Shown here: positions 1,347-56,962 of the stretch, in pieces
How positions within the stretch are numbered: the first letter of the stretch is position 1
Layout: each line of letters opens with the position of its first letter
Origin: a virus
Taxonomy: Duplodnaviria > Heunggongvirae > Uroviricota > Caudoviricetes
DNA length: 64,000 nucleotides
IMG/VR virus record: IMGVR_UViG_3300035210_000151
Direction: 5' to 3' (one strand)
Notes under the pieces: model-generated
Told to the model about the DNA's origin: nothing
Seen by the model: only the letters and a program-made list of their open reading frames with translations
Database searches by the model: none
Position numbers and translations under genes: made by a program

Positions 1347-2093
1347 ATGAAACTTACCGATGAGTTTATGAGTGCAATCAAGAACTCTTTATTTGATACA
1401 TACAATATAAAATGTGAAATCTCTCTTAATTCTTTTACTTCCCAAGATGTGTTTCTGCGATTGGAAGGCACTATTAATGAGCGTGTCTTTGTGGGAACCA
1501 TGACTATTCTTAAAAGCTATTCAATCGAAAATAAATTTTCATTTTTTATTGATGGTCGTTTTGTGGGCGAACTTCATGATGATTTTATTAAGCATATTTC
1601 ATCCACTAATCCTTTATTTGTGGCAATGCATGAAGTAAACCAATTTGTCATTGAACAATTTTCTCGGAAAATACCTTTTGTTTACAAATCTTTTTATATT
1701 GGTGTTGGTGAGTTTTTCTATATCAATAATCAAATTGAGCAATTAAAGATTGATATGACCCCCGAGTTCTATCTCAACCTTTCAATTGGTATAAAACTTC
1801 ATGATAAAGATAGCAATTTAGACGGCAAGACTGATTTGCTTTTTGTTTCATACTCTACAAAAAATAACTTAAAGCAGATTCAGTACCAACTTCCAGCTTG
1901 TTTAACCATGAAAAAATTAAATGAGCATGATGATCTTGATGAGTTTAAAAAGACATTATTAAGAGAGTATATGAGCCGCTATTCTAGAATTACAAAGAAT
2001 AGATTATTGTTGCCAATTGAAAACTTTGATATTTTATCTTATGGGGTAATACTTGACCATCTTAAAATTCAGTCTATGAATGACATTGTATAA
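1347..2093 (+). CDS. Hypothetical protein, family A, C-terminal tag (DHLKIQSMNDIV)
   Basis: ORF; paralog of 2581..3303 (MKL..EF...IK.SLFD.Y, F.IG.GEF, KK.LLREYM..YS). Confidence 0.85.
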   Translation: MKLTDEFMSAIKNSLFDTYNIKCEISLNSFTSQDVFLRLEGTINERVFVGTMTILKSYSIENKFSFFIDGRFVGELHDDFIKHISSTNPLFVAMHEVNQFVIEQFSRKIPFVYKSFYIGVGEFFYINNQIEQLKIDMTPEFYLNLSIGIKLHDKDSNLDGKTDLLFVSYSTKNNLKQIQYQLPACLTMKKLNEHDDLDEFKKTLLREYMSRYSRITKNRLLLPIENFDILSYGVILDHLKIQSMNDIV

Positions 2094-2170
2094 GAGATAA
2101 ATAGTTTGATTAAAGATGTGTTTTGTGATAAAATAATCACTCTCATCAACCCCAATTAAGGTAAATAAAA

Positions 2171-2584
2171 ATGACAGAAACTCAAATGCATTATGTAAAC
2201 CAACTGTTTTTTGGATTGCCAGAAGATATGCAACAATTCATGATCAAAGATTTGGAATCTCGATTAACCCTAGAACAAATTGAAGAATCTAAGCAAACTT
2301 CTGAACAAATTTATTCTATTCTGTCTAACGTGGATTCGCTCTTGCTTTCTCATCATTTAGGTGAAGACAATCAATCTCATCAATCCGCTAATCTAAATTT
2401 TCTTTATTGTGAGAATTTACTTAATACTGTCGATGATGATTCAGTTGTTGCCTTTATTAAATTACTTGAAATGAACTTTACTCAAAAGGCTCTCGATGGT
2501 TTTATGCTCATTGCCGCACAAAAAAATGCGAGGTCTTTAGAGTTTGATCAGCTTTTTGCAGCCGCTAAACAGGATTTTTCATGA
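2171..2584 (+). CDS. Hypothetical protein
   Basis: 137 aa ORF, AAGGT RBS, upstream TGATAAAAT -10; ATGA overlap with the next gene. Confidence 0.8.
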   Translation: MTETQMHYVNQLFFGLPEDMQQFMIKDLESRLTLEQIEESKQTSEQIYSILSNVDSLLLSHHLGEDNQSHQSANLNFLYCENLLNTVDDDSVVAFIKLLEMNFTQKALDGFMLIAAQKNARSLEFDQLFAAAKQDFS

Positions 2585-3303
2585 AATTAAGTAAAGAATT
2601 TGAAACCCTCATTAAACAGTCTTTGTTTGATCGTTATGCTGTTGAAGATCTAAAAATCACTCGTGAACAACAGAAAGACTTTATACGATTTTCGTTAAAA
2701 GGTCTTGTTAATAATGAATCTTTTGTGGGATCTTTAAATATTGTCGAACATAAAGATAGCACAGCTTCATTTACGATGACAGGATGGTTTGATGGCAATA
2801 GTCGAAGTTTTATGAACCATGTATTGAAAGATAACATTTATACCAACACTATCAGTGAAATTGGTGAATTCTTGCATTCTAATTTTAGCAGACCTATTAC
2901 TACTGTCGTCGGTCGTTTTCACATTGGTATGGGCGAATTTTCTTTGGATGGGAAAAAAATTACTAATATCTCAATTAATGCTAATCCAGCGTTTAGGTCA
3001 CGAATTGAAATAATTCCAAAAGAAAAAGATAAAGTTATTGATAATATTTTGCTTGAAATTTCTTATATTGTTAAAGATGGTCAATCTCATTTTAATTATG
3101 CAACAAAGGATGAAGCTGTCTTTTATACTTCTGTTAATAATATGGACTTGGATTCATTAAAAAAAATCTTGCTTCGTGAATACATGACCGCTTATTCTTT
3201 ATTGACTGAAATCCCAAATTTATTAAGTTTTGATGAATTCAATACATTAAGTTATCAACACATCATTGATTATTTGACCGTTCAACAGATGAATGATATT
3301 TAA
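2581..3303 (+). CDS. Hypothetical protein, family A, C-terminal tag (DYLTVQQMNDI)
   Basis: 240 aa ORF; paralog of 1347..2093. Confidence 0.85.
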   Translation: MKLSKEFETLIKQSLFDRYAVEDLKITREQQKDFIRFSLKGLVNNESFVGSLNIVEHKDSTASFTMTGWFDGNSRSFMNHVLKDNIYTNTISEIGEFLHSNFSRPITTVVGRFHIGMGEFSLDGKKITNISINANPAFRSRIEIIPKEKDKVIDNILLEISYIVKDGQSHFNYATKDEAVFYTSVNNMDLDSLKKILLREYMTAYSLLTEIPNLLSFDEFNTLSYQHIIDYLTVQQMNDI

Positions 3304-3326
3304 CAATTTTAAAGAGGTGTTTTGTT

Positions 3327-4145
3327 ATGCTCACTGATAAATGTAAGAAACAGCTCAAAGAGCTATTAAGAGAGCGATATAACATTGATTGTCACAGAAT
3401 TGTTCAAGCTCAGGAAAATGCCTATAATTATTTTTACTTCACCTTAATTTGTGTTTGTGAAAATAAAGGTTTTGAAATGTTGTTGACCATTTCCCGTCAC
3501 ATGCGTTATCCAACGGTATTGAGAACTAATGTGGTGTTTGGCACCATTCAGGCTGATATTGAAGCGGATGAGTTCATTGATGATTATGATTTTACGATTC
3601 AGATTGACTCTAAAAATACCGACTTGGTTCGAATTTTATCCAACCAAATGTACGATAACCCTATTGTTAGTTCAATGAATAATATCAATAAACAATTTTC
3701 TCTAGGTATTGATAGCAAGTATTATATGTTGTATACAAAAATCATCCCTATTGTGGGGTTAATGAAAAAAGATAAGGGTTGGTTTAATATTAAGACCATC
3801 AGTGAAACACCTTATTTCGTAGGCAATCTCTGCAGTTCTTTTATTCATCCTAAACGTGCAACACCTGTAAATGAAGTATTGTTTAATTTCTTTATATTTG
3901 GTGATCAATTTAACTATGTTACAGGAACAAGAGCTACTTCGTCGGCCTATAACACAGAACCGTTGTTGCCCATCAATCCAGACACATTGAAATGTTTTGA
4001 AAAAGACATCTTTCAAGAAATCTTTTTTGCTTATTCAAAACTGTTTGATTTTAAGATTGAAGATATGTCAAAAGAAGAGCTTCGAGAGTTGGATATTGAT
4101 GATTTCTTACAATACATAGAAGTCCAGAAAATGGCACAAATTTAA
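3327..4145 (+). CDS. Hypothetical protein, family B, C-terminal tag (QYIEVQKMAQI)
   Basis: 272 aa ORF, GAGGTG RBS; paralog of 4159..4908 (IKTISETPYF/LKTISNYPTF, FQEIFF/FQELFL). Confidence 0.85.
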   Translation: MLTDKCKKQLKELLRERYNIDCHRIVQAQENAYNYFYFTLICVCENKGFEMLLTISRHMRYPTVLRTNVVFGTIQADIEADEFIDDYDFTIQIDSKNTDLVRILSNQMYDNPIVSSMNNINKQFSLGIDSKYYMLYTKIIPIVGLMKKDKGWFNIKTISETPYFVGNLCSSFIHPKRATPVNEVLFNFFIFGDQFNYVTGTRATSSAYNTEPLLPINPDTLKCFEKDIFQEIFFAYSKLFDFKIEDMSKEELRELDIDDFLQYIEVQKMAQI

Positions 4146-4158
4146 ATGAGGCATAGAA

Positions 4159-4908
4159 ATGTTAACCAGTGAATCAAAATCAAAAATCATAGATGAACTA
4201 GCCAAAAATGACATTGTTTGTACTAGTTTTATTGAAGTCTTGTCCATGAAAGAAAGTTATCCTAACTATAATATTTCAGCTATTTTTGAAGGCCATGAGA
4301 TTACATTAAAACTGATGTCTTGTGTTCTGGATAAGAATTATAATGTATTAGGTATGAAATTAGAACCAGATGGCAAGAATCGAGATGAAATTGTTAACTT
4401 CAGCGTTTCTTTACAAGGTGATAACTTGCACATTTTCAATAATTTTATTCAAAATAAATATTTGGAACAAGAGCTAAATGAAGTGGATAAAATTAACAAA
4501 GATTTTCCTTTTGATGTTGATTATGAAATTGCTTTATTTTATGATTCTTTTTGTTTTGCAACTGGCACAATGGTTTATGTTGATCGTTGTTATGAGTTGA
4601 AAACAATATCTAATTATCCAACATTTACGATTGGAGCTTATGCACATTATCCTACGGCTACATTTTATAGCAAAGGTAAATTACTTTTAAAATTTCATAA
4701 AAATAGATATAGAATTGCCTATAATTATACATTCACACCTATTGATGAGACTAAACCTTTACGATTAAAACTTTTTCAAGAGCTATTTTTGTATTATATG
4801 GAAAAAACAAAATTTAAAATGAATGTGTTAGACATGGATGAAATGTTATTGATGGATTATGATGATTTAATTGCTTATATAACTGTTCAGAAAATGGTTG
4901 ACATTTAA
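4159..4908 (+). CDS. Hypothetical protein, family B, C-terminal tag (AYITVQKMVDI)
   Basis: 249 aa ORF, GAGG RBS; paralog of 3327..4145. Confidence 0.85.
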   Translation: MLTSESKSKIIDELAKNDIVCTSFIEVLSMKESYPNYNISAIFEGHEITLKLMSCVLDKNYNVLGMKLEPDGKNRDEIVNFSVSLQGDNLHIFNNFIQNKYLEQELNEVDKINKDFPFDVDYEIALFYDSFCFATGTMVYVDRCYELKTISNYPTFTIGAYAHYPTATFYSKGKLLLKFHKNRYRIAYNYTFTPIDETKPLRLKLFQELFLYYMEKTKFKMNVLDMDEMLLMDYDDLIAYITVQKMVDI

Positions 4909-4985
4909 ATAAAAAGCTAAATAAAACTTTAAATGTTAACGAATTTATGATACAATACACTAAATTAAAAAACCGGAGTCCACGT

Positions 4986-5471
4986 ATGTCAAAAGTCCTA
5001 CAGTTCCCAGTTCGGCACAAAATAGATCCTGCCACTGTCGAGTTTTATGCTGAACTTTTAGAGAAAAAATCTGCCTTGCTCAATAATCAAGAACTCATTC
5101 TTGATAATTCTAACACTAATCGTCGTTTTAGTGGCTGCCACAACTCACTTGGGCCACTCTCAGAGCAAACTTATCGCTTGTTACTGGCCTTTGCTAATCA
5201 ACCTATTGAAGAAAACTGGGTTGCTGTAAAGGATACTCGTATTTTTGGTCGTATGACTCCTTTTGATATTGTGGCAGACAGTTATCCAGAATATACGGAA
5301 CCAGCCTCAGTCAATAAAGTGCCTTCCGCTGAAACGTTTAGTTTTGCCTTTTCTGTTATCAAACAGAAATTTTTAATGAAACAGTCATTGCTTTTAAACG
5401 AATATCAGGCTAGTATTGATGACATAGAAAATGAATACCCAGAATTGAAATCTACTTTTAAGGTAAAATAA
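4986..5471 (+). CDS. Hypothetical protein
   Basis: GGAG RBS before ATG 4986; TGATACAAT -10 upstream. Confidence 0.8.
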   Translation: MSKVLQFPVRHKIDPATVEFYAELLEKKSALLNNQELILDNSNTNRRFSGCHNSLGPLSEQTYRLLLAFANQPIEENWVAVKDTRIFGRMTPFDIVADSYPEYTEPASVNKVPSAETFSFAFSVIKQKFLMKQSLLLNEYQASIDDIENEYPELKSTFKVK

Positions 5472-5473
5472 CC

Positions 5474-5905: not shown

Positions 5906-5934
5906 TCAATTAAATTAAAAAATTAGGAGAAATT

Positions 5935-6243: not shown

Positions 6244-6257
6244 AAAGGAGTTTAACT

Positions 6258-19306: not shown

Positions 19307-19918
19307 CTACTTTCTTTTCTTTTCATATTCTAAGAGTGGATTAACGGTGTAGAAACCAAAATATTGATACACTTTGACATCAAGACCTAATAATTTGTCA
19401 GCCAAGTCTTTTGTAATAATAATCTCTTTAGACAATGCTTCTCTGGCTAGGAGCATTGTTTCTGTGCTATTGGTCTTAAAACATCTTTCTTTGTAATATA
19501 AGAAATGATTATCCTCACTATACACCGATACAGAATTTTCATGATTAATGGCTGATACTTCGTCTAGCAGTTTAATGATGTAATAATCGTTCAGTTCTCT
19601 ATTGTCTCTCGCATAGATAGCGGCTGGTTCAATATATTCAATACGACTTGATGTTAAACTATCCAGTATCACTTTAAACTTTTTACTGACCAATAACTGC
19701 CCGCCTATCATCCATAAACAATCAAATTTTATTAATCTGTCATATTTTTCTTTAAAATAGATAGTAGGCTTATCCATATGAGAACTAAATGGTGTAGTGT
19801 TATACAAACTGAGATAATCAAAGTTATCACTATCTGAGGCGTAATCACCTTCATTTTCCCCATATGAGCCTATCAAAAGTGATGAGTAATATATGGGTGT
19901 TGACCAGTTTAAATACAT
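19307..19918 (-). CDS. Imm11/DUF1629-like immunity-protein homolog
   Basis: LLVSKKFKVILD...IEYIEPAAIY...DYYIIKLLDEVSAINHENS...IIITKDLADKL pattern. Confidence 0.55.
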   Translation of the reverse strand: MYLNWSTPIYYSSLLIGSYGENEGDYASDSDNFDYLSLYNTTPFSSHMDKPTIYFKEKYDRLIKFDCLWMIGGQLLVSKKFKVILDSLTSSRIEYIEPAAIYARDNRELNDYYIIKLLDEVSAINHENSVSVYSEDNHFLYYKERCFKTNSTETMLLAREALSKEIIITKDLADKLLGLDVKVYQYFGFYTVNPLLEYEKKRK

Positions 19919-21021
19919 ATATTACCTATTTTTTTCTTCGATAATGGTTTGTTGAGATCTACTGTTGTATAGTTGTCTCTATTCTTTGAATATTCTAAAT
20001 GATCATTATAATACCTAACTGTTTTGAACCCATTTTCTTTCAACATACTTAATAATAGTTCTTTTCTTTCGTCTTCAAATGAAACTTTAAAGGTTTCTTT
20101 TAAATTCAATATGGTGTTCATTTGATCAAAGGTTATAAATTCTTTGGAACGAGCGGATATTACAAACGAATTGAAGTTAACAAATATATTTCTTTCTTCA
20201 ACTACTGTGTTATTAAATAATACACCCAAGTTAGCTTCTTTGTCTTTAATGCCCAGTGTGCGATCTAAGTATTCATCTGGTTGGTAAAGACCTAATTCAG
20301 ATTTTGCTTGTTTATAGATTTGATATTTGATATCACCGATTCTAACTCTTACATCATCATTTCTTTCTCTTACTGTCTCCAAGAAACTAGAAAATTCTCT
20401 TGTTAGTTTTTTGAAGTCATCTTTAATGTATCTATCAAAATTATGCAAAGCATCGACTTTTTTCTCTTGTTGTTCCTGAACTTCACTTTTATAAAATTCA
20501 ATCAAACCTAGACATTCATCAGTGTTCTGTCCTTTAACGGTTAAAAATAATAGTTCTTTTTCTTGATTTGTTAATAATTTTTGTTGTTTCACTTCTTCAT
20601 CTTTGGCTTCCAACAAGTCATGTCTATAATCTTGCCATTGTTCAATGAGTCCATTAATCTCTGTGGCATATTCTCTTAGTTCAGATTTATAATCGGTATT
20701 GATGGAGTTTATTAATTTATCATAGTCGTCTTCATAGTTGAAAACTTCACCTAACACGCCATTGTATAAATGTTCTGGCAACTTGTTAACAAGTTTAATA
20801 ATATCATTTGACCATTGATCAAGGTCATACATTGCTTTAAATAGTTCAGTAAGGTTGATTTTTAATTCTTCAGGTTCTTGTTCCAAGTCTTCTTCATAAA
20901 TCCTTGTGGCATTTCTACTACTAAATTGCAATACATTTATTCTAGGACAGGTAATATCATGTACGTCATGAACACCCAATAATCTATCTATGCTGACTTG
21001 TTTTTTATTATCGTGACCCAT
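19909..21021 (-). CDS. Hypothetical coiled-coil protein (370 aa paralog pair)
   Basis: KKQVSID.LLGVHD.H.ITCPRIN.LQF shared with 21107..22219. Confidence 0.85.
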   Translation of the reverse strand: MGHDNKKQVSIDRLLGVHDVHDITCPRINVLQFSSRNATRIYEEDLEQEPEELKINLTELFKAMYDLDQWSNDIIKLVNKLPEHLYNGVLGEVFNYEDDYDKLINSINTDYKSELREYATEINGLIEQWQDYRHDLLEAKDEEVKQQKLLTNQEKELLFLTVKGQNTDECLGLIEFYKSEVQEQQEKKVDALHNFDRYIKDDFKKLTREFSSFLETVRERNDDVRVRIGDIKYQIYKQAKSELGLYQPDEYLDRTLGIKDKEANLGVLFNNTVVEERNIFVNFNSFVISARSKEFITFDQMNTILNLKETFKVSFEDERKELLLSMLKENGFKTVRYYNDHLEYSKNRDNYTTVDLNKPLSKKKIGNICI

Positions 21022-21106
21022 GTCTAACCTTTCTATGACTAATTGATATAATTACAGTATAGCATAAGAAATATTAAGTTTAAGATCTGTTATGTTGTAT
21101 CTAGTC

Positions 21107-22219
21107 TTAACCATTCTTAAACTTAGGTTTGTATAGAGGTGTATTAAGTTGTTGTTCAGTATAAGCATCTCTGTTCTGTTTATATTCTTTTTGATCGTTG
21201 TAATACCTAACAGTAATCACACCATTTGTTTTTAACATATCAAGTAGAGTTGATTTCTTAACTTCTCGATGATCAGTGTTAACTACTTCCTTTTCATTTA
21301 GATCAATCAGGGTGTTTAATTGTTCAAAGGTAATAAAACGTTTAGCCCTCATTCCAAGAGCAAAGCTTTTAAAGTTAACTTTCTCATTTCTTGCATCGGT
21401 TTCAGTATCATTAAAGATAACACCTAAGTTAGCCACGGATGGTTGTATGCCAAATTTAAGATCCAAATATTCGTCTGGTTGGTAGATGTTTAATAGTTCT
21501 TTGACGTGTTTTTCCATTTGGGTTTTTATTTCACCAATACCACATCTTAAATCATCGTTTCTATTTCTTACGTCTTCGAGAAAATATGAGAATTTTTTAA
21601 CTTGTTTCTCGAAGTCATCTTTCACATAACGTTCAAAATTAGTTTTGGCGTCATCTTTCTTTTCTGTTTGTTCGTAGACTTCATCTTTATAGAATTCAAT
21701 TAATCCCATACAGTCTTCTAAATCTTTACCATTCAATTTTAAAAAGAGTAATTCTTTTTCTTGTTCTTCTAATAATGCTTGTTGCTTTAACTCTTCTGTA
21801 TGGGCTTCTGCATAATCATTTCTATACGTTTGCCATTCTTCTATCAATCCATTAATAGATTCGGCATACTCAGTGATTTCTGGCTTATGGTCTATTTCAA
21901 GATCTTCTAGCCTTTGGGTATATTCATGATCAGTTAAAAAGGCTTCGCTTAAAATGATGTATTTTTTTATATCTGGTAGGTTATTCAACACCGCTATGAT
22001 GTCAGCAGACCATTTATCTAAATCATTCATGGCTTTGAATAACTCAGTTAAATTTAATTTTAAATTTTCTGGATCGAAATCAAGTTCTACTTTATAGACC
22101 TTAGTAGCACATTCGGTATCGAACTGAAGTGGGTTAATTCGTGGGCAAGTGATTTCATGTTTATCATGAACACCTAATAGACTGTCTATACTGACTTGTT
22201 TTTTATACTCGTATGGCAT
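21107..22219 (-). CDS. Hypothetical coiled-coil protein (370 aa paralog pair)
   Basis: Collinear paralog of 19909..21021; ends KPKFKNG. Confidence 0.85.
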   Translation of the reverse strand: MPYEYKKQVSIDSLLGVHDKHEITCPRINPLQFDTECATKVYKVELDFDPENLKLNLTELFKAMNDLDKWSADIIAVLNNLPDIKKYIILSEAFLTDHEYTQRLEDLEIDHKPEITEYAESINGLIEEWQTYRNDYAEAHTEELKQQALLEEQEKELLFLKLNGKDLEDCMGLIEFYKDEVYEQTEKKDDAKTNFERYVKDDFEKQVKKFSYFLEDVRNRNDDLRCGIGEIKTQMEKHVKELLNIYQPDEYLDLKFGIQPSVANLGVIFNDTETDARNEKVNFKSFALGMRAKRFITFEQLNTLIDLNEKEVVNTDHREVKKSTLLDMLKTNGVITVRYYNDQKEYKQNRDAYTEQQLNTPLYKPKFKNG

Positions 22220-25623: not shown

Positions 25624-26280
25624 TTGAAAAAACTATTGACATTTATCAAGCATGATTTCGTCTCTCAGGTGTTTTTATTCAACCTTTTGCTTATTGTTAT
25701 TTATGCCTACTTCTCATTCAGTGACACGTCGAGTTTGACGCGAGCATTGATTGTGTTGGCAGTAATATTTTCAGCAGGTTCTTCTTACTTTCTATTCAGT
25801 TCGAAGGTCACTGTTCGTTTTGAACTTGTCTTAGCACTACCCCTTAGCATTTTTGTGATGTGTTTGTTCTTTGGGGTTCTCAACAAGTATAATGAAGTCG
25901 CCTCCTTAAATGAGTTATTCACTTATCAGTCAATGGAACGCTTGATTGACTTTGGCATCGGTGCCGCCTTGTTTTATGGAAGCTTTCTTGCTTTGATGGG
26001 ATTAAGTTGTGCTAACGCTGCACCTGATAGTTTTAATATTCAGGCTGGCAATATTGAAACATTGACTGGTAAACAACATGATTTTATTCATTATCGAATT
26101 ACAAAAAGCTATTCGTCAATCTTGACATTGAATAATTCTATTTTTGGTAAAAATGGTTTGATTGTTAATGGTAGTGTGATTGGATATAATGAATTATATA
26201 ACTATTTAAAAGATCAGAACATGCGGTTTAACGCCTTAACGGATGATGATTTTCTTGTTATGAATATGGTTAAAATTTGA
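25624..26280 (+). CDS. Four-TM membrane protein with C-terminal tag (DDFLVMNMVKI)
   Basis: Four hydrophobic segments then a soluble tail; GAGGA RBS, TTG start, TGGTATAAT -10. Confidence 0.8.
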   Translation: MKKLLTFIKHDFVSQVFLFNLLLIVIYAYFSFSDTSSLTRALIVLAVIFSAGSSYFLFSSKVTVRFELVLALPLSIFVMCLFFGVLNKYNEVASLNELFTYQSMERLIDFGIGAALFYGSFLALMGLSCANAAPDSFNIQAGNIETLTGKQHDFIHYRITKSYSSILTLNNSIFGKNGLIVNGSVIGYNELYNYLKDQNMRFNALTDDDFLVMNMVKI

Positions 26281-27469: not shown

Positions 27470-28282
27470 ATGTCACATATTACAATGGGTCGTGAGATGT
27501 TCTACATTGCGGATCAAATTGCACAAAAGGAAATTCCTTCAGATGATATTTTGTTGTCTCGACTTGAAGAAACGCTTAATGGACGAGATTGCTTTATGAT
27601 ATGTGGAAAATCATTTGATCTACTTCATCAGCTTGGCTTTGTAGAAACGTGTAAATATGATGCTGAGTCTGCAAATCCTATTTATTATGTTAATGTGATT
27701 GCACAATCAGTCATGTATCGTGAACATATTGTTCATCCTTATGAGCGAACGTTTCAAAAAGTAGATGGTAACCGGGTTACTGAGCTTTATTTTAAGCGTG
27801 AAGATTTTGTATTTAAAGAAGATCACAATGATTATTTCTATAACCTTGTTTTGAAAGGCACTTATCTTAAGGACTCTCTTCCAGAAGGTGAACTTACTTA
27901 TATTAATCTGAGCGAAATAAAATTTCCAAAATTGGGGACGCCTTCAATTATTGGTTACAAAAAAAATGGTGAGATCTCCGTAACTTGCACTGTGAACAAA
28001 AATCGCGTTATTTGGTTTTTTGATGGCGATCATACTTACCAAGATGATGTTATCTATAAAGAGTATGAATCTAATAACTTATTTGACATTGCGATTGTTA
28101 ATTATACGCATAAGAAACGTATTGAATCGGTTGTCTTTCGCCTTGGCAACAGACAAATTGATATTGAACAAATCGCTGATGTCGTTCCTGCGTTAGTGGG
28201 GTTGAAACCTATTGAACAATTGAATTGGGAACGTTATGTGACTCCCGAACAAATCCTCGTTCTTGAAATGAGGGCCATTTAA
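27470..28282 (+). CDS. Hypothetical protein, family E, C-terminal tag (EQILVLEMRAI)
   Basis: GAGG RBS, TGCTATAAT -10; paralog of 28284..29003 (LGF, ELY.K, PSII.Y, VVPAL, LNW..YVT.E). Confidence 0.85.
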   Translation: MSHITMGREMFYIADQIAQKEIPSDDILLSRLEETLNGRDCFMICGKSFDLLHQLGFVETCKYDAESANPIYYVNVIAQSVMYREHIVHPYERTFQKVDGNRVTELYFKREDFVFKEDHNDYFYNLVLKGTYLKDSLPEGELTYINLSEIKFPKLGTPSIIGYKKNGEISVTCTVNKNRVIWFFDGDHTYQDDVIYKEYESNNLFDIAIVNYTHKKRIESVVFRLGNRQIDIEQIADVVPALVGLKPIEQLNWERYVTPEQILVLEMRAI

Positions 28283-28283: not shown

Positions 28284-29003
28284 ATGGCTGAAATGATTGA
28301 TAGTAAACTTGATGAGATTAAGACAGCCTTAGCTAATAATAAGTGTTTTACCGTTAAGGGGCACTTTAAGGAGCTTTATGATCTAGGTTTTTATCAACAG
28401 GCTGATAACAATCCAGATTTTGTTAAGGACGATGACAACCCTAATTTCTTTTTGAATATTTATAACCTTATCAATGAGCAACATTCAGAGTTAACTGAAT
28501 ATGATTACACTTTTTATAAAATCATTGGCGATGAAGTGATTGAACTGTATTTAAAAGAATGTTCAAAAGAATATGGTTACAAGGGTAAAGAACGTGAATA
28601 CGTCCTTGCTTTTAAAGGTCGTTATTATTTAGACACATGTAAATTAGTCCCCTCTAAAAAGCCATCTATTATAGCTTACAACTGGTATGGTCAACCTACG
28701 CTTATGGTGACTATCCGAGGGCAAGAAACAGAATGGTTTATTACTTCACATGCAAGTGCTGCTGATTATTTTGGTAAGTTTTTTGATTCTGACTTACACT
28801 TTGGTCTGCATCGTGTTGATTATGATTCTACGAAAAAAACGATTACTGATGTTTATTTTAAAGTCGGTGAGAATTTTATTACGGCTGTTGAACTTGGTGA
28901 AGTAGTTCCGGCTTTGAAAGACTGCAGTTATTTAAAATTGTTAAACTGGCAAAAATATGTAACATCTGAGCATATTACGGTGTTGGAAATGACTTTAATT
29001 TAA
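28284..29003 (+). CDS. Hypothetical protein, family E, C-terminal tag (EHITVLEMTLI)
   Basis: 239 aa paralog of the upstream gene. Confidence 0.85.
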   Translation: MAEMIDSKLDEIKTALANNKCFTVKGHFKELYDLGFYQQADNNPDFVKDDDNPNFFLNIYNLINEQHSELTEYDYTFYKIIGDEVIELYLKECSKEYGYKGKEREYVLAFKGRYYLDTCKLVPSKKPSIIAYNWYGQPTLMVTIRGQETEWFITSHASAADYFGKFFDSDLHFGLHRVDYDSTKKTITDVYFKVGENFITAVELGEVVPALKDCSYLKLLNWQKYVTSEHITVLEMTLI

Positions 29004-40211: not shown

Positions 40212-41957
40212 TTAAGATTGTTCTTCAATATTTTTAACCGCTAGATTTTTATTAATTAATTTGATAAATCTGTTAACATTTTCTTGGTTAATATGTGTAT
40301 CATCTTTTTGGTGAGCGGTCACGTATTCACCTTTTTTATTTAAAGAAATACCAATCATTGACGACATGGAATTTGATTTTTTGCTAAAATCATAAATGAA
40401 ATATTGTTTACCTTCATTTTCTGTATATTTATTAAATAGTGAATTACTGTAACAAATACACCATGAGGATGAACCCAACATAACACTCTGTAGGTAGTTT
40501 TCAATTTCACAAATCAATAGATTATTTTGTGTCATATAATTATTAATATTATTTCGTTTAAATTTATCAATCATAGCATCAATGGTAAATCCATCAAAAA
40601 TATCAATTTGTTTTTGCAATGCTTTATTTAAATCAGATGAAGTTTTAAACAACGCAATTTTTTTACCGATTAAACTTTGTAATTGATTTTCCGTTACCTT
40701 CATGTCCATTAATGTCTTGAACAGTTTTAAGCTCGTTTCATCATATAAATGTTTATACTTATTACTGATGATACTGTTTGTATATTTATTTAATTTATGA
40801 TTATTAACGATTTTTAGCATGTTATCAAAAATCTTTTCAAGATCCTCTATTGTTTGTTCAATTAAGTTGAATCCTTCCAATTTAAGAATGTCTTTGTTTT
40901 CCAAATAATAATTACAGAAATCAATAACAAATAAACAATTATTGTTTTTAGTCATTGATTTTAATTTCTTTAACACATAAGGATGTTTATGTAATTTATC
41001 ATGTAGGAGGTCATTACAATATTCATTGATGTAAACGAATAGTTCTGTGTTATCTGGTATTGATGTAAAACTCTCGCCATGTTCAAGTAATACACTGTTA
41101 TCATTAAAAAAATGCAGTATGCGATTATTTTTTAAATTGATATTAAACGACCAATGCTTATTTTTAATAATATGCTCATGTTTATCAATATTATTGTAGC
41201 GTAGTGGAATCGCCAAGTGAGATTGATTCATAGCTGACCATACATGTCTTATAGTCTTTTCATAAAGATGAGAAAACTCGACACGAATCAATTCACAAGT
41301 TTCAATAATTTTATTTTTACTCATAAATTCTTGAATATTCCGAAAGCCTACTTTATTGATCAGATAACTTTTATTTTTAATTAATTTAAGTAATTCTTTT
41401 ACATGGCTATCAATATTAACATCAGGAGATTTTCGTGCAAACGCACTAATATCTTGTGAATACTTTAAAATAATATCTAGTTCTTCACGGACAATATCTA
41501 GATTATTAAGTTTTTCTAGTCTTTTTAAGTAGCGTTTGATATTTTGAATATGTTTTTTAAAATATTTGGACGCATCGAACTCATCACTAAAAATCTGCCA
41601 TTTTTCTAACGCTAGACGTATATTATTGTCCACTATTTCTGGATTATAATGTCTATCTAGTTGTATGAAAGTTTGATAAATTATAGAATCAAGTGAGTTA
41701 ACTTGTCCTATGTCATAATATTTTAAAAATGTTTTTCCATCCTTAATATTATGAAATGTCTCATTAAATCTCAAAAAAATAAGATCGTATTTTCTGTTGA
41801 AATCATGGCTGTAGATGTTTCCAGTAGTAGATAGACCTACACGGAATAAAAATTTATCAAAATTTTCATAACCAATGAATGAACTATTATTGATAGGGAT
41901 TTCAGCCGTATAAGTTTCATAGGCTGCCATTTTATCTAAAATATCCTGCTCGGTCAT
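40212..41957 (-). CDS. Large hypothetical protein with conserved LGSSSWCI C-terminal domain (tentatively PcfJ-like)
   Basis: SNKY.HLY, IGKKIA, LGSSSWCI, QYFIYDF, SMIG, AHQKDD shared with 58936..60834 and 60964..62907; GAGGA RBS. Confidence 0.8.
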   Translation of the reverse strand: MTEQDILDKMAAYETYTAEIPINNSSFIGYENFDKFLFRVGLSTTGNIYSHDFNRKYDLIFLRFNETFHNIKDGKTFLKYYDIGQVNSLDSIIYQTFIQLDRHYNPEIVDNNIRLALEKWQIFSDEFDASKYFKKHIQNIKRYLKRLEKLNNLDIVREELDIILKYSQDISAFARKSPDVNIDSHVKELLKLIKNKSYLINKVGFRNIQEFMSKNKIIETCELIRVEFSHLYEKTIRHVWSAMNQSHLAIPLRYNNIDKHEHIIKNKHWSFNINLKNNRILHFFNDNSVLLEHGESFTSIPDNTELFVYINEYCNDLLHDKLHKHPYVLKKLKSMTKNNNCLFVIDFCNYYLENKDILKLEGFNLIEQTIEDLEKIFDNMLKIVNNHKLNKYTNSIISNKYKHLYDETSLKLFKTLMDMKVTENQLQSLIGKKIALFKTSSDLNKALQKQIDIFDGFTIDAMIDKFKRNNINNYMTQNNLLICEIENYLQSVMLGSSSWCICYSNSLFNKYTENEGKQYFIYDFSKKSNSMSSMIGISLNKKGEYVTAHQKDDTHINQENVNRFIKLINKNLAVKNIEEQS

Positions 41958-42131
41958 GAAAAAATCCTCTATTAATAGCATTTGATTATAGCATAACGTC
42001 TATTTTTTCGCAACAAAAAGCAATCCCGATATCTTCTTTATACCTATATTTATGTTTATTTATACAATCAATTTTGTTTGTTTAATTCTTAAAAAATGCT
42101 ACACTACTATTAATAATAATAAGTAAAACTA

Positions 42132-43136: not shown

Positions 43137-43841
43137 ATGATTTCAGTTGAGGGCTGGGTAGAGCGTAAAGATAAACGCATTGAATTTTTCAATAACAATC
43201 GTAAAGTCATTTCAGCTATGGTTCAAAAAGCTCATCGTGTAAATTTAATGCCAGAAGCTATCACCCTTGCCAGCAATCATGACATTTTTGGGGGCAGTTT
43301 CTTTTCTGATGCCGTTTTCAATAGTTGTGCCTATATTGCTAAAGTCAGTAAAGATGAATTAGCTTTTTACAGAACGATTTACAAACATTCCCAACACAGC
43401 AATAATAAATGTTCGTCTCCACTAAAAATTGAAACAACTCTGAAAAACGAGTATTTTCGTCAATATTGTGACCGTGTGCTGGCGGTATTTTCAACGTTTT
43501 ATGAAGAAGTGAATATCGTTTGGATTACTTCAGGTGAAATTGAAGGTGATGTCACTAGTTTTTTTAGCAAATTTGTTACACCAAGCTATAAGATTAATGA
43601 CAACTATCTCAAATTTGTGGGTGAACGACCACGCTATAAAAAATTTGATAATGTTCCTGATTTCCTTAACATTAATGAATTTAATTTCATGAACAACGAT
43701 TCTGATTATTTCATGAATACTTTTTTTGATAGATTTAACACCCGAATTATCCCTGATGAACCTGATCTTAAATTAAATAAGGATATGGATTTACAGACAT
43801 TGAAAGATAGGTTGACGCTTATTTCTATGGTAATGATTTGA
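43137..43841 (+). CDS. Hypothetical protein, family F, C-terminal tag (DRLTLISMVMI)
   Basis: Paralog of 43861..44547 (EL.F.R..Y.HS, FYE.V.IVWI..G.IE, P.Y.I.DN.LK, PRY..F...P.F); GAGGA RBS. Confidence 0.85.
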   Translation: MISVEGWVERKDKRIEFFNNNRKVISAMVQKAHRVNLMPEAITLASNHDIFGGSFFSDAVFNSCAYIAKVSKDELAFYRTIYKHSQHSNNKCSSPLKIETTLKNEYFRQYCDRVLAVFSTFYEEVNIVWITSGEIEGDVTSFFSKFVTPSYKINDNYLKFVGERPRYKKFDNVPDFLNINEFNFMNNDSDYFMNTFFDRFNTRIIPDEPDLKLNKDMDLQTLKDRLTLISMVMI

Positions 43842-43860: not shown

Positions 43861-44547
43861 ATGTTTATGCTTGATGGTTATACAGAAGAAGCTGATACTG
43901 ATGAGCGTTTTAGGTTTCTTTATAATGAATCCAATCTTAACTTGATTACTCATTTTATTGAGAACGCACATAACATTCAATTACCCCGTGATGGCATTGT
44001 TATTGATGAAAATGATGATATTTTAGCTATTGATTACTTTGATAACAGAACTTTTAATAATCATGTCACTGTTGCTAATGTTAGTCCACGAGAACTTTCA
44101 TTTTTTAGATCTGTTTATCGACATTCAATATCACAAGAAAAAATCAGTATTGACTATAAACCTAAATACTTTTCAGAATATTATGAAAGAATAATTGCTG
44201 TTTATTCTAACTTTTATGAAGATGTTGAAATTGTGTGGATTAGCAATGGTCAAATTGAAAATAATACTAATAATGATGTAATGCCAACCTATAATATTCA
44301 AGATAACATTTTAAAAATTATTGGTATTAATCCACGCTATAGTGTATTTAAAGATATTCCTTATTTTATTCAAATGAATGAAATCAATTTTAATAATAAA
44401 AGTGGATCGGATAACTTTTTGGATCTTTTCTTTGAACGCATTAATCAACACGTAATACCAAAAAATGTTGATATTGAACTTCATAGATTAACTGACATTG
44501 ATACATTGAACGAGCAGCTTGTTCTTATTTGTATGTGTATTGTTTAA
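43861..44547 (+). CDS. Hypothetical protein, family F, C-terminal tag (EQLVLICMCIV)
   Basis: AGGAGG RBS; paralog of the upstream gene. Confidence 0.85.
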   Translation: MFMLDGYTEEADTDERFRFLYNESNLNLITHFIENAHNIQLPRDGIVIDENDDILAIDYFDNRTFNNHVTVANVSPRELSFFRSVYRHSISQEKISIDYKPKYFSEYYERIIAVYSNFYEDVEIVWISNGQIENNTNNDVMPTYNIQDNILKIIGINPRYSVFKDIPYFIQMNEINFNNKSGSDNFLDLFFERINQHVIPKNVDIELHRLTDIDTLNEQLVLICMCIV

Positions 44548-52523: not shown

Positions 52524-52570
52524 TTCAGTAAATTAATAGGAAGCTTATTCAATCAAGCTTCCTAATTTTT

Positions 52571-52837
52571 TTAATGTTTTAATAATGCACATTTAGTATT
52601 TTTAGATAATACCAAATTAGAAATATCGACCACTTTTGATCCCACTTCTCGCCAGTTATTTTCAACTGCTATTTTTCTGACAGTGGTTTCAAATTGTGAT
52701 AATTCATCTTTATTGAGCATCATTTCAATTTCATTGGTGTCATTGATGTAATACAATGTGCCATCATGTTCATAAGTCCTAAAACTTAACTTATCATCTT
52801 TGTCTACGAATAATCGTAAGGAAACATACTTATTCAT
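52571..52837 (-). CDS. Hypothetical protein
   Basis: 88 aa, AGGAGGT RBS; hairpin at 52538-52563. Confidence 0.8.
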   Translation of the reverse strand: MNKYVSLRLFVDKDDKLSFRTYEHDGTLYYINDTNEIEMMLNKDELSQFETTVRKIAVENNWREVGSKVVDISNLVLSKNTKCALLKH

Positions 52838-52997
52838 AGCTACCTCCTAATAGTTTTTATTAATAATATCATAAAAAATAGAAAAATATATAGTGGCATT
52901 CTATCTTCTGGCTGAGTGGTATATTCTTCAAAACTTTAACCTTGTATATTTTTGTGTTTTTTGCTATACTGCTTGTCTAATTTAAAAGGTATCTATT

Positions 52998-53735
52998 ATG
53001 TCTAATTTTCTTAAAATTTTTGTTCGCAATGACCTGAAAATGCGAAAAGGTAAGATGGCCGCTCAATCCGGTCACGCTGCCATGAAGCTTTTCTTTGAGG
53101 CTATGAAAAAAAGCCACACCCGTATGACATTGCTAGCAAAACAAAAAGCCGAATTCTTGGAGTTCTTCAGTAACCCAGTGGTTGAAATTGTTATGGTTAA
53201 AGACGAAGATGAACTTCATGCTATTTTAGCTCCACTGGCTCCTGTGTCTGTCATCGTAGATAATGGTCGCACTGAGTTTCATGGTGTTGCAACCACTACC
53301 TGTGCTGCACATGGTATTTTCACACCTTGTGATTTGACCGTGATGAATGTACCTCAGACTTACGGTACCGAAATTAAGTCCAAGCAAATCTTTGTATTCA
53401 ACAAAGACAAACCACTCAGTAAAGAGAAGGCTTGTCAGCAAGCCGTGATTTCTTGCTTGAAGTTGCTGTATAATCAAATGTTGGATGATGAAGATGGTAA
53501 TAAGTATTTTGACATCACTCAGAAGAATGCATTAACTGACTGGATTATGAATGCTTTTGCTAAAATTGCATTGTCTACCAAGACGATGGATGAATTAGAT
53601 GAAGTTGAGCGTCAATTGAAGGCGTCTGGTTTTGTGGTCGAACGCATTGTTGATGATGGTAACGATTGTTTATGTGTGTCGCCACAATACCCTGATGACA
53701 TTGACCCTATTACACGTCACCTGTCGTTGATTTGA
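52998..53735 (+). CDS. pth2: Peptidyl-tRNA hydrolase type 2 (Pth2) with a tandem degenerate second Pth2 domain
   Basis: VRNDLKMRKGKMAAQSGHAA, IVDNGRTEFHG..T.TC; second domain KQIFVFNKD..LSKEK..QQ...W....AKI...IVDDG...P.....IDPITRHLSLI. Confidence 0.85.
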   Translation: MSNFLKIFVRNDLKMRKGKMAAQSGHAAMKLFFEAMKKSHTRMTLLAKQKAEFLEFFSNPVVEIVMVKDEDELHAILAPLAPVSVIVDNGRTEFHGVATTTCAAHGIFTPCDLTVMNVPQTYGTEIKSKQIFVFNKDKPLSKEKACQQAVISCLKLLYNQMLDDEDGNKYFDITQKNALTDWIMNAFAKIALSTKTMDELDEVERQLKASGFVVERIVDDGNDCLCVSPQYPDDIDPITRHLSLI

Positions 53736-53799
53736 ATTGAAATACGAGCATTATAATGGTATAATGCTCACCTAATTTAGTCTTTTAAGGACATTCTTC

Positions 53800-55323
53800 A
53801 TGAAATCTTTTAATGCCGGTTTGGAAGCAGATACAGTTGTAAAAATCTTTGAAAAAATCATTGTGGGTATGTCAAAACCAGATTTTGACGAAGGCACTGG
53901 TATCGCTCAACGTGCTGGGCTTACAAATTTTGATTATAAAGATCGTAGTTTCTCTAAGGATCTATCTTTTGATTCTATTTATGGTCATGTAAAGATTGAA
54001 ATTAGAATGTTTCAGGTCAAAGTCGAACTTAAACCAAGCCTTATTGAAGAAAAACTTGACATTGAAGGTCGAGCGGCTTTTTCTTGTGCGGTTTCTGACG
54101 ATTTCAATGATGTTGATTATAATAATGTTTTGGCAGTTCTTAATAAAATGGGTAAAGAAGACCCTATTACTTTTAAGATTAATGGCATGATTGGTGGGGA
54201 CACTTATCGCACCGTTATCAATGCTTGGGATGATTCCTTTACCACTAGCCATCGTGAGCTGACTGATTTGTTGGTCAATATCATTGGTAAACAGTTAGGT
54301 TTCATTACTTCCACAGAGGCTAATATTTTGAATGATGCGTATTGCCTTGGTAACGAGCCTCTCCATCGTGAGCACTACACTCAGCTTCTCATTCCACACT
54401 TTGAAACATTGTTTACTGCTTTGAAAGACAATGGACATGATGCTGAAAACGAATTTGATTTTAACGACATGGACAATTTCCTTCATTACATTGAGAGTGA
54501 AGATGAGACGGTTCGTGGCGTAGTTTTACAAACTCAGAATAATATGTTCTTGTTTGCTAAAAACACAGATACAGGTGTTTTGAAAATTTGGAATACCATT
54601 TTACTGCGTGAGTATAATGAAAGTGATGTATTTGATAAAGTCGAAGACGGTGTATTTGATGGAGCAGCATATCTTTCACCTATGTTGTTCTCTATGTTTG
54701 GTGAACGCTATGAATACCCTTGTGAACTTGAAGGCTCTGCATATCGTAAACTGCCCAGCACACTGATTGAATCGTTTGACGAGTATAATGCTCATTTGAT
54801 TTATAGTTCTGACGAAGGTTTCTATCCATTGCAAGGTCATAAAGCTCAGCGGGCGTTTGATGAAATTGATTGGGCTAGCGAAGTATTGGGTGATGAATAT
54901 GCGATTGAACCCGCAATTATTAATCAGAGTGCCATTGATTATAAGTCTCCAACCTATGTCATTCGCAAACTGACATCAGATTCATTTACCACAGATCGTG
55001 TAGCTGCGTTGATTAGGTTATTCACTGTGATGAGTGGTGATTATCATTGGGACGGAGAAGGTTTTGTTGATGGCTCTAACTACATTGTTAATCTTGACGA
55101 AAACGAATATGAAAATAAGTTAGTAAAAATCAACCGGGAATGTTTCTTGTTTGGTAAATCTTGCATTATCTTTAACCTGCCACAAAATATTACTCCCGAA
55201 TGGCTTGAAGTGGCTCGTGAGTTTGTAGGTCATTACAAAGAATGGGTCGATAATCATGATGACAAAACTTCTGCTGAATATTTAGAAGCAAAAGGTCGAT
55301 TGGATGAGCTTGTTACTATTTAA
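53800..55323 (+). CDS. Large acidic hypothetical protein (paralog of 37584..39212)
   Basis: Shares the motif blocks listed for 37584..39212; AAGGA RBS, TGGTATAAT -10. Confidence 0.88.
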   Translation: MKSFNAGLEADTVVKIFEKIIVGMSKPDFDEGTGIAQRAGLTNFDYKDRSFSKDLSFDSIYGHVKIEIRMFQVKVELKPSLIEEKLDIEGRAAFSCAVSDDFNDVDYNNVLAVLNKMGKEDPITFKINGMIGGDTYRTVINAWDDSFTTSHRELTDLLVNIIGKQLGFITSTEANILNDAYCLGNEPLHREHYTQLLIPHFETLFTALKDNGHDAENEFDFNDMDNFLHYIESEDETVRGVVLQTQNNMFLFAKNTDTGVLKIWNTILLREYNESDVFDKVEDGVFDGAAYLSPMLFSMFGERYEYPCELEGSAYRKLPSTLIESFDEYNAHLIYSSDEGFYPLQGHKAQRAFDEIDWASEVLGDEYAIEPAIINQSAIDYKSPTYVIRKLTSDSFTTDRVAALIRLFTVMSGDYHWDGEGFVDGSNYIVNLDENEYENKLVKINRECFLFGKSCIIFNLPQNITPEWLEVAREFVGHYKEWVDNHDDKTSAEYLEAKGRLDELVTI

Positions 55324-55363
55324 ATAAGGCCGGAAAGGGCTTTGTTTTACTTATGAGGTTATT

Positions 55364-56152
55364 ATGGATATTTCAGAAAAAACAGCCGCTACAATTAATG
55401 ATATTTTCAACAATACTAATGATCCTTTGAATCTAGAATGTCTTAAAGATCCTCTTGTATATCGACAACCTGCACTTAAAGGTGAATATCCTAATTTAAT
55501 TACACATGAGATCCATCACTGCCAGTCATCTTTTGATAACTTGCTACATCTGGCAAGTGAGCGTTTTTATAATGTTAGAGACAGAAACTTTTTAAGTAGT
55601 GATATTTGTTACTTTTTAAACATGTATTTTCAATATGACTATAAACCATTTTTGTTTGTTAAAAATTTTGGATTCTATAAAATAGTGGTTGTTGTCAAAC
55701 CTTTACAGCGAATTGAATCTGATCTTGTTAAAACAGAATATTGTATAGTTGCTAAGCTTCTACTTGATGCAGATAATCAACTGGTTAAACATGCTGATAA
55801 ACCCGTTATTCTTTTATTTGAAGAAAATTGTCAACTCTTTAAATTCTTTAAGTTTCACGAAAACTACTATACACAGATATCGTTAGATAGCTTTGATCAG
55901 TTATCAAATTATTCTGTTGTGTGTAAAAAATACGATCATAGCATTATCGGTAGATCTTATTACAATCATTATTCACTAGATTTCATCCCTGTTAATCGTT
56001 TCCAATTTCGAATAAAAGATAAAGACTATTCATTCGATGTTCTTTTGAACTATGATGATGATTTTAAAAATTACACACTAGAAGAACTCATTAAACACAT
56101 GGCAACACTGGATAAAGAGCACATTGACTTATTAGCGATGTATTTGATATAA
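55364..56152 (+). CDS. Hypothetical protein, family G, C-terminal tag (EHIDLLAMYLI)
   Basis: Paralog of 56180..56962 (YPNL.T..I..C...F.NL, FVK.F...KI.VV, AK.LLD..., Y.H.II); GAGGT RBS. Confidence 0.85.
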   Translation: MDISEKTAATINDIFNNTNDPLNLECLKDPLVYRQPALKGEYPNLITHEIHHCQSSFDNLLHLASERFYNVRDRNFLSSDICYFLNMYFQYDYKPFLFVKNFGFYKIVVVVKPLQRIESDLVKTEYCIVAKLLLDADNQLVKHADKPVILLFEENCQLFKFFKFHENYYTQISLDSFDQLSNYSVVCKKYDHSIIGRSYYNHYSLDFIPVNRFQFRIKDKDYSFDVLLNYDDDFKNYTLEELIKHMATLDKEHIDLLAMYLI

Positions 56153-56179
56153 TAGACTACTTTGTAAAGGTGATTGACC

Positions 56180-56962
56180 ATGAATACAGACGATATTACT
56201 AATCCAACTGCAATAGCTACTGAAGCTGTTGAGTTTGATATACAATATCCTAATTTGTTTACATATGATATTGCGAATTGCAAACAGACATTTCCTAATT
56301 TGTCATTACTGCTCGATCAAGGTTTTAAACCCGTCAAGTCGGTAAGTGATGAAATTATTGATCTTTTCAAACGGGATGAGCTTTTCTTAAATTTACAAGT
56401 CTCTCAAAATGTCTTTGTTAAAGAGTTCGATTATTTTAAAATCATGGTGGTTCTTTCTATTGCTCCATCAAGAGTTGAATTCCCAGACTTATTGCCAACC
56501 AATAATCATCCTTACTACATTCTTGCTAAGGTGCTTCTGGATAAACATGATAATCTTTTAAAAAAACTTGAATATGATCTACCTTCGATGACATTTTATC
56601 GTAAAGAAGGCGGTATATCATCAAATAGAAGCAATGTTATTCTAGACAGTTATTATACTTTCTTTGATACTCATTATGCAGTGACAGATATTGAAGAATT
56701 TGATCACTACAATTCTAAGTATTATTTTGTTTTCAGAGAATACAATCATAACATTATTGCGACCGCTGTTCACTGTGATTCAGCGATTGAACTCATTAGT
56801 TTGAAAAACAGCACATTTTACATGAATGGGATAGTGTACAATCCCGATATTTTGTTTGAAATTGAAGGCACCGTAAAAGGTAGCCATTTTAGAGATTATC
56901 TTGATTGTCGAATTTCGATGACACAAGATAAGCTTGATTTGTTAGCCATGACCATGATATAA
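56180..56962 (+). CDS. Hypothetical protein, family G, C-terminal tag (DKLDLLAMTMI)
   Basis: AAGGTG RBS; paralog of the upstream gene. Confidence 0.85.
   Translation: MNTDDITNPTAIATEAVEFDIQYPNLFTYDIANCKQTFPNLSLLLDQGFKPVKSVSDEIIDLFKRDELFLNLQVSQNVFVKEFDYFKIMVVLSIAPSRVEFPDLLPTNNHPYYILAKVLLDKHDNLLKKLEYDLPSMTFYRKEGGISSNRSNVILDSYYTFFDTHYAVTDIEEFDHYNSKYYFVFREYNHNIIATAVHCDSAIELISLKNSTFYMNGIVYNPDILFEIEGTVKGSHFRDYLDCRISMTQDKLDLLAMTMI

Follow-up and report, generated by a model that had tools for sequence, protein, structure and literature searches.

Here we analyse a 64,000-nucleotide stretch of DNA (hereafter the window), filed in IMG/VR as the Caudoviricetes virus record IMGVR_UViG_3300035210_000151, in which 14 proteins end in one C-terminal motif, a tag with methionine at position -4 counted from the last residue (-1). 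Based on the evidence below, we conclude that this motif is a clade-wide feature borne by up to a fifth of the genes examined, and that it is heritable within families. We further consider it probable that one shared partner reads the tag.

An earlier note on this DNA, made from the sequence alone, had listed the 14 C-termini and the positions of their stops, and all of them proved exact when the window was re-read. Met stands at -4 in 13 of the 14 carriers and at -5 in the open reading frame (ORF) ending at 2093, which has one extra residue. Codon choice varies between tag copies, as had also been claimed, which indicates that the constraint acts on the protein. Because codons differ between families, a DNA-level repeat or shuffling cassette was rejected as the source of the tag. 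A regular expression for the motif, composed only after the motif had been seen, matched 14 of 84 mechanically called ORF ends in the window, exactly the 14 carriers, compared with 16 of 17,944 internal positions (binomial P ~1e-23). The earlier note had proposed this internal comparison as a control, and it speaks against composition as the explanation. Met occupies -4 in 15 of the 84 ORFs against a Met frequency of 2.6%. When scoring matrices were built with one family left out at a time (A and B together), all 14 tails fell within the top 2% of internal windows and 12 of them within the top 0.51%. With the full matrix the carriers scored 19-27 bits and the next-best terminus in the window -2.7 bits. 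The carriers, all on the + strand and lettered by family, are listed here with their lengths in amino acids (aa).

Carrier A1, 1347..2093, +: 248 aa, with one residue beyond the tag; A2 is its paralog (E 4e-32).
Carrier A2, 2581..3303, +: 240 aa, tail DYLTVQQMNDI; relatives swap the body and keep the last 79 nucleotides identical.
Carrier B1, 3327..4145, +: 272 aa, tail QYIEVQKMAQI; predicted alpha/beta fold with the tag in the last helix (residues 257-271).
Carrier B2, 4159..4908, +: 249 aa, tail AYITVQKMVDI; A and B form one remote family.
Carrier C1, 6672..7874, +: 400 aa, tail RDLKVIEMLLL.
Carrier C2, 7956..9161, +: 401 aa, tail ADLQVIDMALF; the contigs of three relatives join across the C2 copy.
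Carrier C3, 9222..10421, +: 399 aa, tail KDFQVLDMALF.
Carrier D, 25624..26280, +: 218 aa, tail DDFLVMNMVKI; multi-pass membrane N-terminal half and soluble C-terminal half with the tag.
Carrier E1, 27470..28282, +: 270 aa, tail EQILVLEMRAI; predicted beta-meander with a small helical end, the tag being the last helix (259-269).
Carrier E2, 28284..29003, +: 239 aa, tail EHITVLEMTLI.
Carrier F1, 43137..43841, +: 234 aa, tail DRLTLISMVMI; a homolog is present in the related record G004.
Carrier F2, 43861..44547, +: 228 aa, tail EQLVLICMCIV.
Carrier G1, 55364..56152, +: 262 aa, tail EHIDLLAMYLI.
Carrier G2, 56180..56962, +: 260 aa, tail DKLDLLAMTMI.

The carriers had been described as about seven dissimilar families with a possible link between A and B. 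The link is real, since A and B are homologous over 200 columns with the tag removed (hhalign E 5e-4), and the window therefore holds six families. The dissimilarity stood for the other 20 of 21 family pairs, which show no profile similarity (E >= 0.11, shallow alignments); this comparison covers the seven window groups, with alignments of 2-9 members, two of them possibly enlarged. The claim that one carrier is a membrane protein with four transmembrane segments was borne out in its membrane character and not in its count, as a crude scan finds three hydrophobic segments in carrier D, for which tagged orthologs are present in loci L287 and L288. None of the carriers had been recognised as an enzyme, and Pfam agrees (0 of 14 in the window and none overall). 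Likewise, a comparison of the window carriers with PHROGs gave nothing usable (one PHROG at E 0.009), and PADLOC matched 0 of 14.

Related records were recovered with degenerate DNA patterns for the tail and its stop. One pattern found G001 (193 kb) in IMG/VR, and two further patterns yielded G004 (437,043 bp), G005, G006, G007 and G008 (290 kb, of which 195 kb were fetched). Matches to such patterns are mostly chance, a carrier cluster being present in 1 of 80 flanked loci. Because each related record was found through one tail match, its discovery was selected, while the totals within it were not. These totals are high throughout the relatives: in G001, 60 of 301 ORFs, on both strands, have Met at -4 (Met frequency 2.5%), as do 102 of 575 in G004, 56 of 263 in G005, 43 of 247 in G006, 46 of 212 in G007 (about 2.5% expected) and, over the 195 kb fetched from the start of G008, 21 of 356. 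Only 10 protein links join G001 to the window. A matrix trained on the window and G001 found 35 ORFs above 8 bits in G007, and for just 7 of these is there a similar protein in the earlier elements. With the same matrix, none of the 1,329 ORFs of 79 chance loci was picked out, nor any of the 234 ORFs in 40-kb pieces taken from a Vibrio and a Pseudomonas megaplasmid, phage CBB and a 642-kb phage. Thus the scan that the earlier note had proposed shows a tag abundant in relatives and absent from the chance loci. We rejected a chance or composition artefact, since the motif is rare internally and absent from the control loci.

Carriers lie along the whole of G004, at 3-16 per 40 kb. The earlier note had placed all carriers on the + strand, which is correct for the 14 and does not hold as a property of the tag. 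The bias is general, with 61 of 84 window ORFs on +, and the 88 G004 carriers counted by strand divide into 76 on + and 12 on -. Strand specificity was rejected on these counts. One further locus of G001, 169034-180847 (L120 and L121), holds a tandem array of 14 tagged paralogs in about 12 kb, from a family of 39 members in four records. No relatives were found in PLSDB and GTDB genomes, which were searched for carriers or clade markers, nor with the A/B tail pattern in JGI metagenomes, with C2 in IMG/VR or by an ESM Atlas search.

In total, BLAST of sequences trimmed of their last 15 residues grouped 264 carriers, a few of which are false calls, into 102 families. Among 98 family representatives, hydrophobic residues occupy -13 in 56%, -9 in 80%, -7 in 89%, -6 in 74%, -3 in 73% and -1 in 90%, the last mostly as Ile or Tyr. 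Acidic residues are found at -5 in 45% and at -11 in 40%. Met at -4 was the selection criterion for the representatives and is hence at 100%; in a few carriers the tail is longer by one residue, or Ile or Ala substitutes for Met. The last 25 residues of carriers are net acidic (-1.6 vs +0.1), and carriers are enriched in Phe (8.3% vs 5.9%) and Tyr (6.0% vs 4.8%). A crude hydropathy scan of 160 carriers classed 146 as soluble and 11 as multi-pass, and a single N-terminal hydrophobic segment resembling a signal peptide was present in 3 of the 160 compared with 34 of 466 untagged proteins.

The tag persists within families. Of 38 multi-member families that contain carriers, 29 are fully tagged, and several of the others can be put down to false calls or degenerate tails. 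B1 and E1 each have 17 full-ended homologs, and every one of these retains the tag. Meanwhile, the bodies of tagged proteins diverge faster than untagged genes in all five element pairs. Between G001 and G005, tagged bodies are 46% identical and untagged orthologs 73% (P 7e-8). In this same pair the ends align flush in 39 of 39 tagged and 64 of 79 untagged ortholog pairs, and the last 10 residues are more conserved than the body in 35 of 39 tagged and 36 of 79 untagged pairs, a tail-to-body comparison that is partly circular because pairs were selected with the tag in both members. At the DNA level, three relatives have replaced the body of A2 and left its last 79 nucleotides unchanged; an extra A-like tail lies nearby in these relatives, and the middle C copy is missing. 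A shared promoter was rejected after 6-8-mers in the 100 nucleotides upstream of 157 tagged and 455 untagged genes were compared. The enriched words read as overlaps with the tail codons of the preceding gene, and TATAAT-like words are fewer upstream of tagged genes (12 of 157) than of untagged genes (89 of 455).

Structure prediction places the tag in a terminal helix. The models of B1 and E1 have mean confidence values (predicted local distance difference test, pLDDT) of 88 and 89, respectively, and in both the tag is the last helix. The predicted B1 structure starts with a helix, continues through two beta-rich regions and closes with three helices; in E1, a helical part at the N-terminus leads into a long beta-meander, which is followed by four short helices at the end. 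The element order differs between the two, as compared without direct superposition. Foldseek found no PDB match at E <= 0.001 for either model, and the weak matches differ. No match at this threshold was found for E1 in BFVD, and E1 is weakly like MORN-type beta-meanders (E >= 2e-3). Projected on a helical wheel, the helix has its least variable positions on one side (-7, -4 and -1 at 60, 0 and 300 degrees) and the hydrophobic positions that vary more on the opposite side (-13, -9 and -6 at 180, 220 and 160 degrees). The terminal amphipathic helix proposed in the earlier note therefore survives as a terminal helix in the two models, and simple amphipathicity gives way to two hydrophobic faces. 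A complex prediction for B1 with E1 scored 0.00, which has no bearing either way.

The size and content of the relatives bear on what kind of element carries the tag. The window is syntenic with G004 at ~294-320 kb, and 31 window ORFs match G004. One pair of window genes that stands outside the tag system serves as a marker of the clade.

Untagged paralog pair, 19909..22219, -: 370-aa orphan paralogs with a conserved His-x-x-Thr-Cys-Pro-x-Ile-Asn start and three further copies in G004; links the window to contigs of 0.44-1.86 Mb.

The marker family is found, 85% identical and with the same neighbours and tagged genes, on a metagenome contig of 1,859,102 bp, and with the same neighbours and tagged genes on contigs of 1,539,155, 604,313 and 520,353 bp. 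Carrier homologs are also present on contigs of 1,843,594 and 1,917,244 bp, so that a replicon above 1 Mb is seen among the relatives only. The GC content is 31-34% in the window and related records. In its 437 kb, G004 has 26 tRNA calls, four aminoacyl-tRNA synthetases, GatAB, TilS, Thg1, DnaK, NAD-synthesis genes, RNA ligases and an efflux triple, while G007 encodes a ClpA/B-like ATPase, RtcB, GAPDH and kinases. Besides the possible source, six peat metagenome runs, perhaps from one campaign, contain more than half of the window's words, no RNA run is listed as containing them, and contigs from food, groundwater and organism-labelled runs are ~91-95% alike to the window over long pieces. When a clade gene was compared by blastn with E. 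coli genomes, nothing matched, and PLSDB matches are at most 37% identical.

Megaplasmids of the pMEGA group, described from Enterobacteriaceae, offer the closest comparison. According to the main text of that report, they carry Vir/Dot/Icm genes and a coupling protein (10.1101/2025.09.30.679422 = PMC12633466). Like pMEGA as described there, and especially its clade 2, the present elements combine Mb size, low GC content and mostly hypothetical genes with many tRNAs and with NAD and translation genes. They also share with the reported pMEGA core set an R2K ATP-grasp protein, PTH2 and T4-type RNA ligases, and with clade 2 tandem clusters of unknown proteins and expanded RNase H-like families (RNase H1 in pMEGA). 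The likeness is one of gene content, size and GC content, and the published pMEGA range of 1.31-1.58 Mb and 26-29.6% GC differs from the 1.86-1.92 Mb that relatives here attain, at 28-34% GC. Furthermore, pMEGA are plasmids of Enterobacteriaceae, whereas DNA of the present element is best represented in peat metagenomes. The main text of the pMEGA report uses the word 'C-terminal' 0 times (10.1101/2025.09.30.679422).

Indirect support for the earlier note's suggestion of a terminal helix read by a single common partner comes from the spread over about 100 families, the kept tail, the controls and the two models. That this partner is a secretion system seems possible to us, at somewhat short of an even chance. 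In such a model the last ~13 residues would form a docking helix, hydrophobic at -13, -9, -7, -6, -3 and -1, with Met at -4 and often acidic residues at -5 and -11, and its reader would be an adaptor or a coupling protein from a type IVB secretion system that the element would encode. The variable face (-13, -9 and -6) would pack on each protein's own body, and the Met face (-7, -4 and -1) would be gripped by the common partner. The element would be a pMEGA-like plasmid with a Vir/Dot/Icm system, the tagged proteins would be its cargo into recipient or competitor bacteria, and their variable beta-rich bodies might bind targets of defence systems or rival elements inside the recipients. We favour export because of the terminal position of the tag, its hydrophobic end and acidic bias, its rarity on signal-peptide-like proteins and the fast evolution of its carriers, and because the most similar described elements carry such machinery.

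Several observations weigh against a secretion signal of this kind. Among the five records searched (G001, G004, G007, G008 and G009), which cover only part of an Mb-size element, the coupling protein family PF12696 was matched in 0 of 5; the same search matched two unrelated megaplasmids. The coupling protein named in the earlier note as a possible partner thus fits the likely class of the element and is missing from these partial records. None of the best 120 of 2,889 IcmO-like proteins is assigned to a contig with a length known for the clade. No secretion gene or tag partner was found in the partial records, in searches that did not extend to relaxase and Rep. The element is likely a pMEGA-like megaplasmid, a class assigned solely from annotation, size and GC content, and that it is conjugative is an inference. 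Signals known from Dot/Icm substrates are no more frequent in carriers, with EExxE in 1 of 98 representatives and 9 of 456 untagged proteins, and FxxxLxxxK in 1 of 98 and 7 of 456. Described type IV secretion signals vary widely (PMC11288057), and here Met is near-invariant. Pfam detects no enzyme or effector domain in 121 carriers (14 + 55 + 52), compared with matches in 12 of 56, 26 of 140 and 56 of 111 untagged proteins (the last set of at least 280 aa). The partial circularity of the tail-to-body comparison, the narrow span of carrier lengths (188-366 aa from the 5th to the 95th percentile), which fits shared ancestry, and the profile links between families in the relatives weigh in the same direction.

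These profile links lead to a different reading, in which the tag would be a relic of structure: a small C-terminal subdomain, passed down to one or a few superfamilies that have since diverged, would end in this helix, which would serve folding or self-association only. Family profiles built without the tag connect many families in the relatives; for instance, some ten form a chain around family C, and another group unites A and B with two others. Taken with the narrow lengths, they indicate that part of the 100 families belong to a few fast-diverging superfamilies. The short helices just ahead of the tag in both models, and the expansion of carriers as tandem paralogs, up to 14 in ~12 kb, suit this explanation as well. 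The earlier note had reasoned that a single homologous fold would undo its proposal; in the window one of 21 family pairs is linked, and among the relatives common ancestry accounts for some of the families. The superfamily links lower the count of independent carriers and leave unexplained the membrane carriers, the unlinked folds and the fixed Met. Indeed, 20 of 21 window pairs lack profile similarity, neither the order of elements nor the weak fold matches agree between the B1 and E1 models, multi-pass membrane proteins also end in the tag, and one would not expect a helix with a structural role alone to hold Met, or its distance from the stop, constant across unlike bodies. We regard a relic as quite unlikely. 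A tail that loads proteins into the particle of a giant phage, or onto another particle or scaffold, is in our view more improbable still. Several related records do sit in IMG/VR, some accessory genes are phage-like (RNA ligases, RegB-like, tRNAs), and two window genes weakly match Rak2-like jumbo phages. Yet Terminase_6N was found in 0 of 4 records (G001, G004, G007 and G008) by a search that matched the control phage CBB at E 2e-17, which weakens the capsid loading that the earlier note had suggested. Gp23 was also found in 0 of 4 records, in a search run without a positive control, and there is no structural or ribosomal Pfam family among 287 large proteins of these partial elements. Of six IMG/VR records examined, five were cut as 'proviruses' from longer contigs; contigs of the clade reach 1.92 Mb, and the tag is missing from the sampled pieces of two giant phages. 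For its part, G004 is rated by IMG/VR as a 98% complete virus; the same genes occur 100% identical on the 604-kb contig, and no terminase was found in it. IMG/VR probably holds several pieces of such elements as phages.

Short terminal motifs read by one machine are familiar from proteolysis, where the SspB tail, ssrA and the non-polar ends recognised by Prc/Tsp and FtsH are usually unstructured. Non-polar ends serve as degrons at the C-terminus, and the tail of SspB is what it docks with. The tag could similarly dock on an AAA+ protease or chaperone (ClpA/ClpP or FtsH), encoded by the element or its host, with the carriers either acting as interchangeable F-box-like adaptors, whose variable bodies would capture proteins of host defence or of rival elements and whose tail would hand these over for destruction, or being themselves degraded and thus short-lived. 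A defined pocket would fit well with one near-invariant residue whose distance from the terminus is constant, and the bodies resemble binding surfaces, being rich in Phe and Tyr, with E1 weakly MORN-like. Membrane carriers would suit a membrane protease. However, adaptor tails are flexible, whereas both models have short helices ahead of the tail and lack a long disordered linker (pLDDT falls below 50 in no segment), and the tag itself is predicted as a folded helix of 11-15 residues, unlike such docks and degrons. Carriers are also spread over all of G004 (3-16 per 40 kb). As to the machine, G007 encodes the ClpA/B-like ATPase mentioned above, and pMEGA4 is reported to encode ClpP and three FtsH-like proteins (10.1101/2025.09.30.679422). 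On balance we judge protease docking unlikely, less so than a relic.

Compared with known secretion signals, the docking helix of the favoured export model has clear parallels and clear differences. Known signals for Dot/Icm export include a hydrophobic residue at the very C-terminus (PMC7251119). Legionella signals are, like the tag, C-terminal and helical with a hydrophobic end and upstream acidic charge, and they are common to many unrelated proteins, membrane proteins included (PMC7251119). Published work also treats membrane effectors of type IV secretion systems (PMC12981334, PMC11602083). Unlike the Dot/Icm signals (the RalF-type end, the E-block and the LvgA-bound FxxxLxxxK; PMC7251119), the tag has a near-invariant Met at a fixed distance from the stop. 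Furthermore, no cognate secretion system is seen in the partial records here, and the likely targets are bacteria, in contrast to Legionella. Conjugation systems also move proteins, as the F-type system of pED208 translocates plasmid proteins (PMC8406263). The carriers resemble such cargo in being encoded by a putative plasmid, and the signals reported there are C-terminal or internal (PMC8406263, PMC11288057). As far as these sources describe them, conjugation signals are loose, positive or hydrophobic and shared by tens of cargoes, whereas the tag is strict, acidic-hydrophobic and present on 88 proteins in one 437-kb piece. Full-text literature searches, with most subscription papers outside their scope, returned no description of the motif and no paper joining megaplasmid, C-terminal motif, hypothetical proteins and conjugation. 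We take the tag to be a probable C-terminal addressing signal, in itself a known kind, set apart by an undescribed motif of unusual strictness and by the exceptional number of its putative substrates.

In described Mb-size Gammaproteobacterial plasmids, about 80% of genes are without annotation. A terminal motif this strict allows as many as a fifth of such orphans to be assigned to a single functional class, predictable from sequence alone, as illustrated by the 35 carriers in a record outside the training set and 0 of 1,329 in controls. With a 13-residue peptide and a point variant, two questions become testable: what plasmids deliver into recipients, and how a secretion or proteolysis machine selects its substrates. 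Because carriers evolve fast (46% vs 73% identity) and vary in copy, they are candidates for new counter-defence or plasmid-competition proteins. A wider proposal, which we advance as doubtful, is that plasmids of 1.5-1.9 Mb devote ~200-400 genes, a number extrapolated from 0.1-0.3 carriers per kb, to interchangeable hypervariable binders that plug into one element-encoded machine, as an injected arsenal or as adaptors that route targets to a protease. If true, this would amount to a Legionella-sized arsenal injected into bacteria, or to a bacterial counterpart of the F-box adaptor expansions.

Other genes of the relatives were noted in passing. Within a tRNA block of G004 (L263:5447-5520), ARAGORN calls a tRNA with anticodon CTA, labelled Pyl and possibly an amber suppressor; TAG nevertheless ends ~10% of called ORFs. 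Nine untagged DEDDh/RNase H-like paralogs with variable N-termini are scattered over G004. Together G004 and G001 encode NadE, NAPRTase, NAD kinase, Sir2, ADP-ribosylglycohydrolase, three RNA ligases and PNKP, an NAD and RNA-repair set that is likely to serve counter-defence. The efflux triple of G004 (L249:15540-19632) is of the MFS-HlyD-OEP type, and its outer-membrane factor points to a Gram-negative host; a methyl-accepting chemotaxis protein is encoded at L248:7426-9084. In G007, a 2,309-aa ORF (L329:8679-15608) has a weak Mbeg1-like match, and HipA-like and Ser/Thr kinases are also present.

In the window itself, three ~600-aa paralogs (40212-41981, 58936-60834 and 60919-62907) share a conserved C-terminal block. 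Their family has 11 members over four records, no Pfam match and weak matches in two 630-640 kb phages. An Imm11 immunity-family gene without an adjoining recognised toxin lies at 19307-19918 (-), a stand-alone glutamate-synthase FMN domain cut by the window end at 62971-63954 (-), and a 245-aa PTH2 with two matched stretches at 52998-53735 (+). Finally, contigs of run X10 break within carrier A1 at window position 1587-1588 with loose ends on both sides, which suggests an insertion element in that relative.

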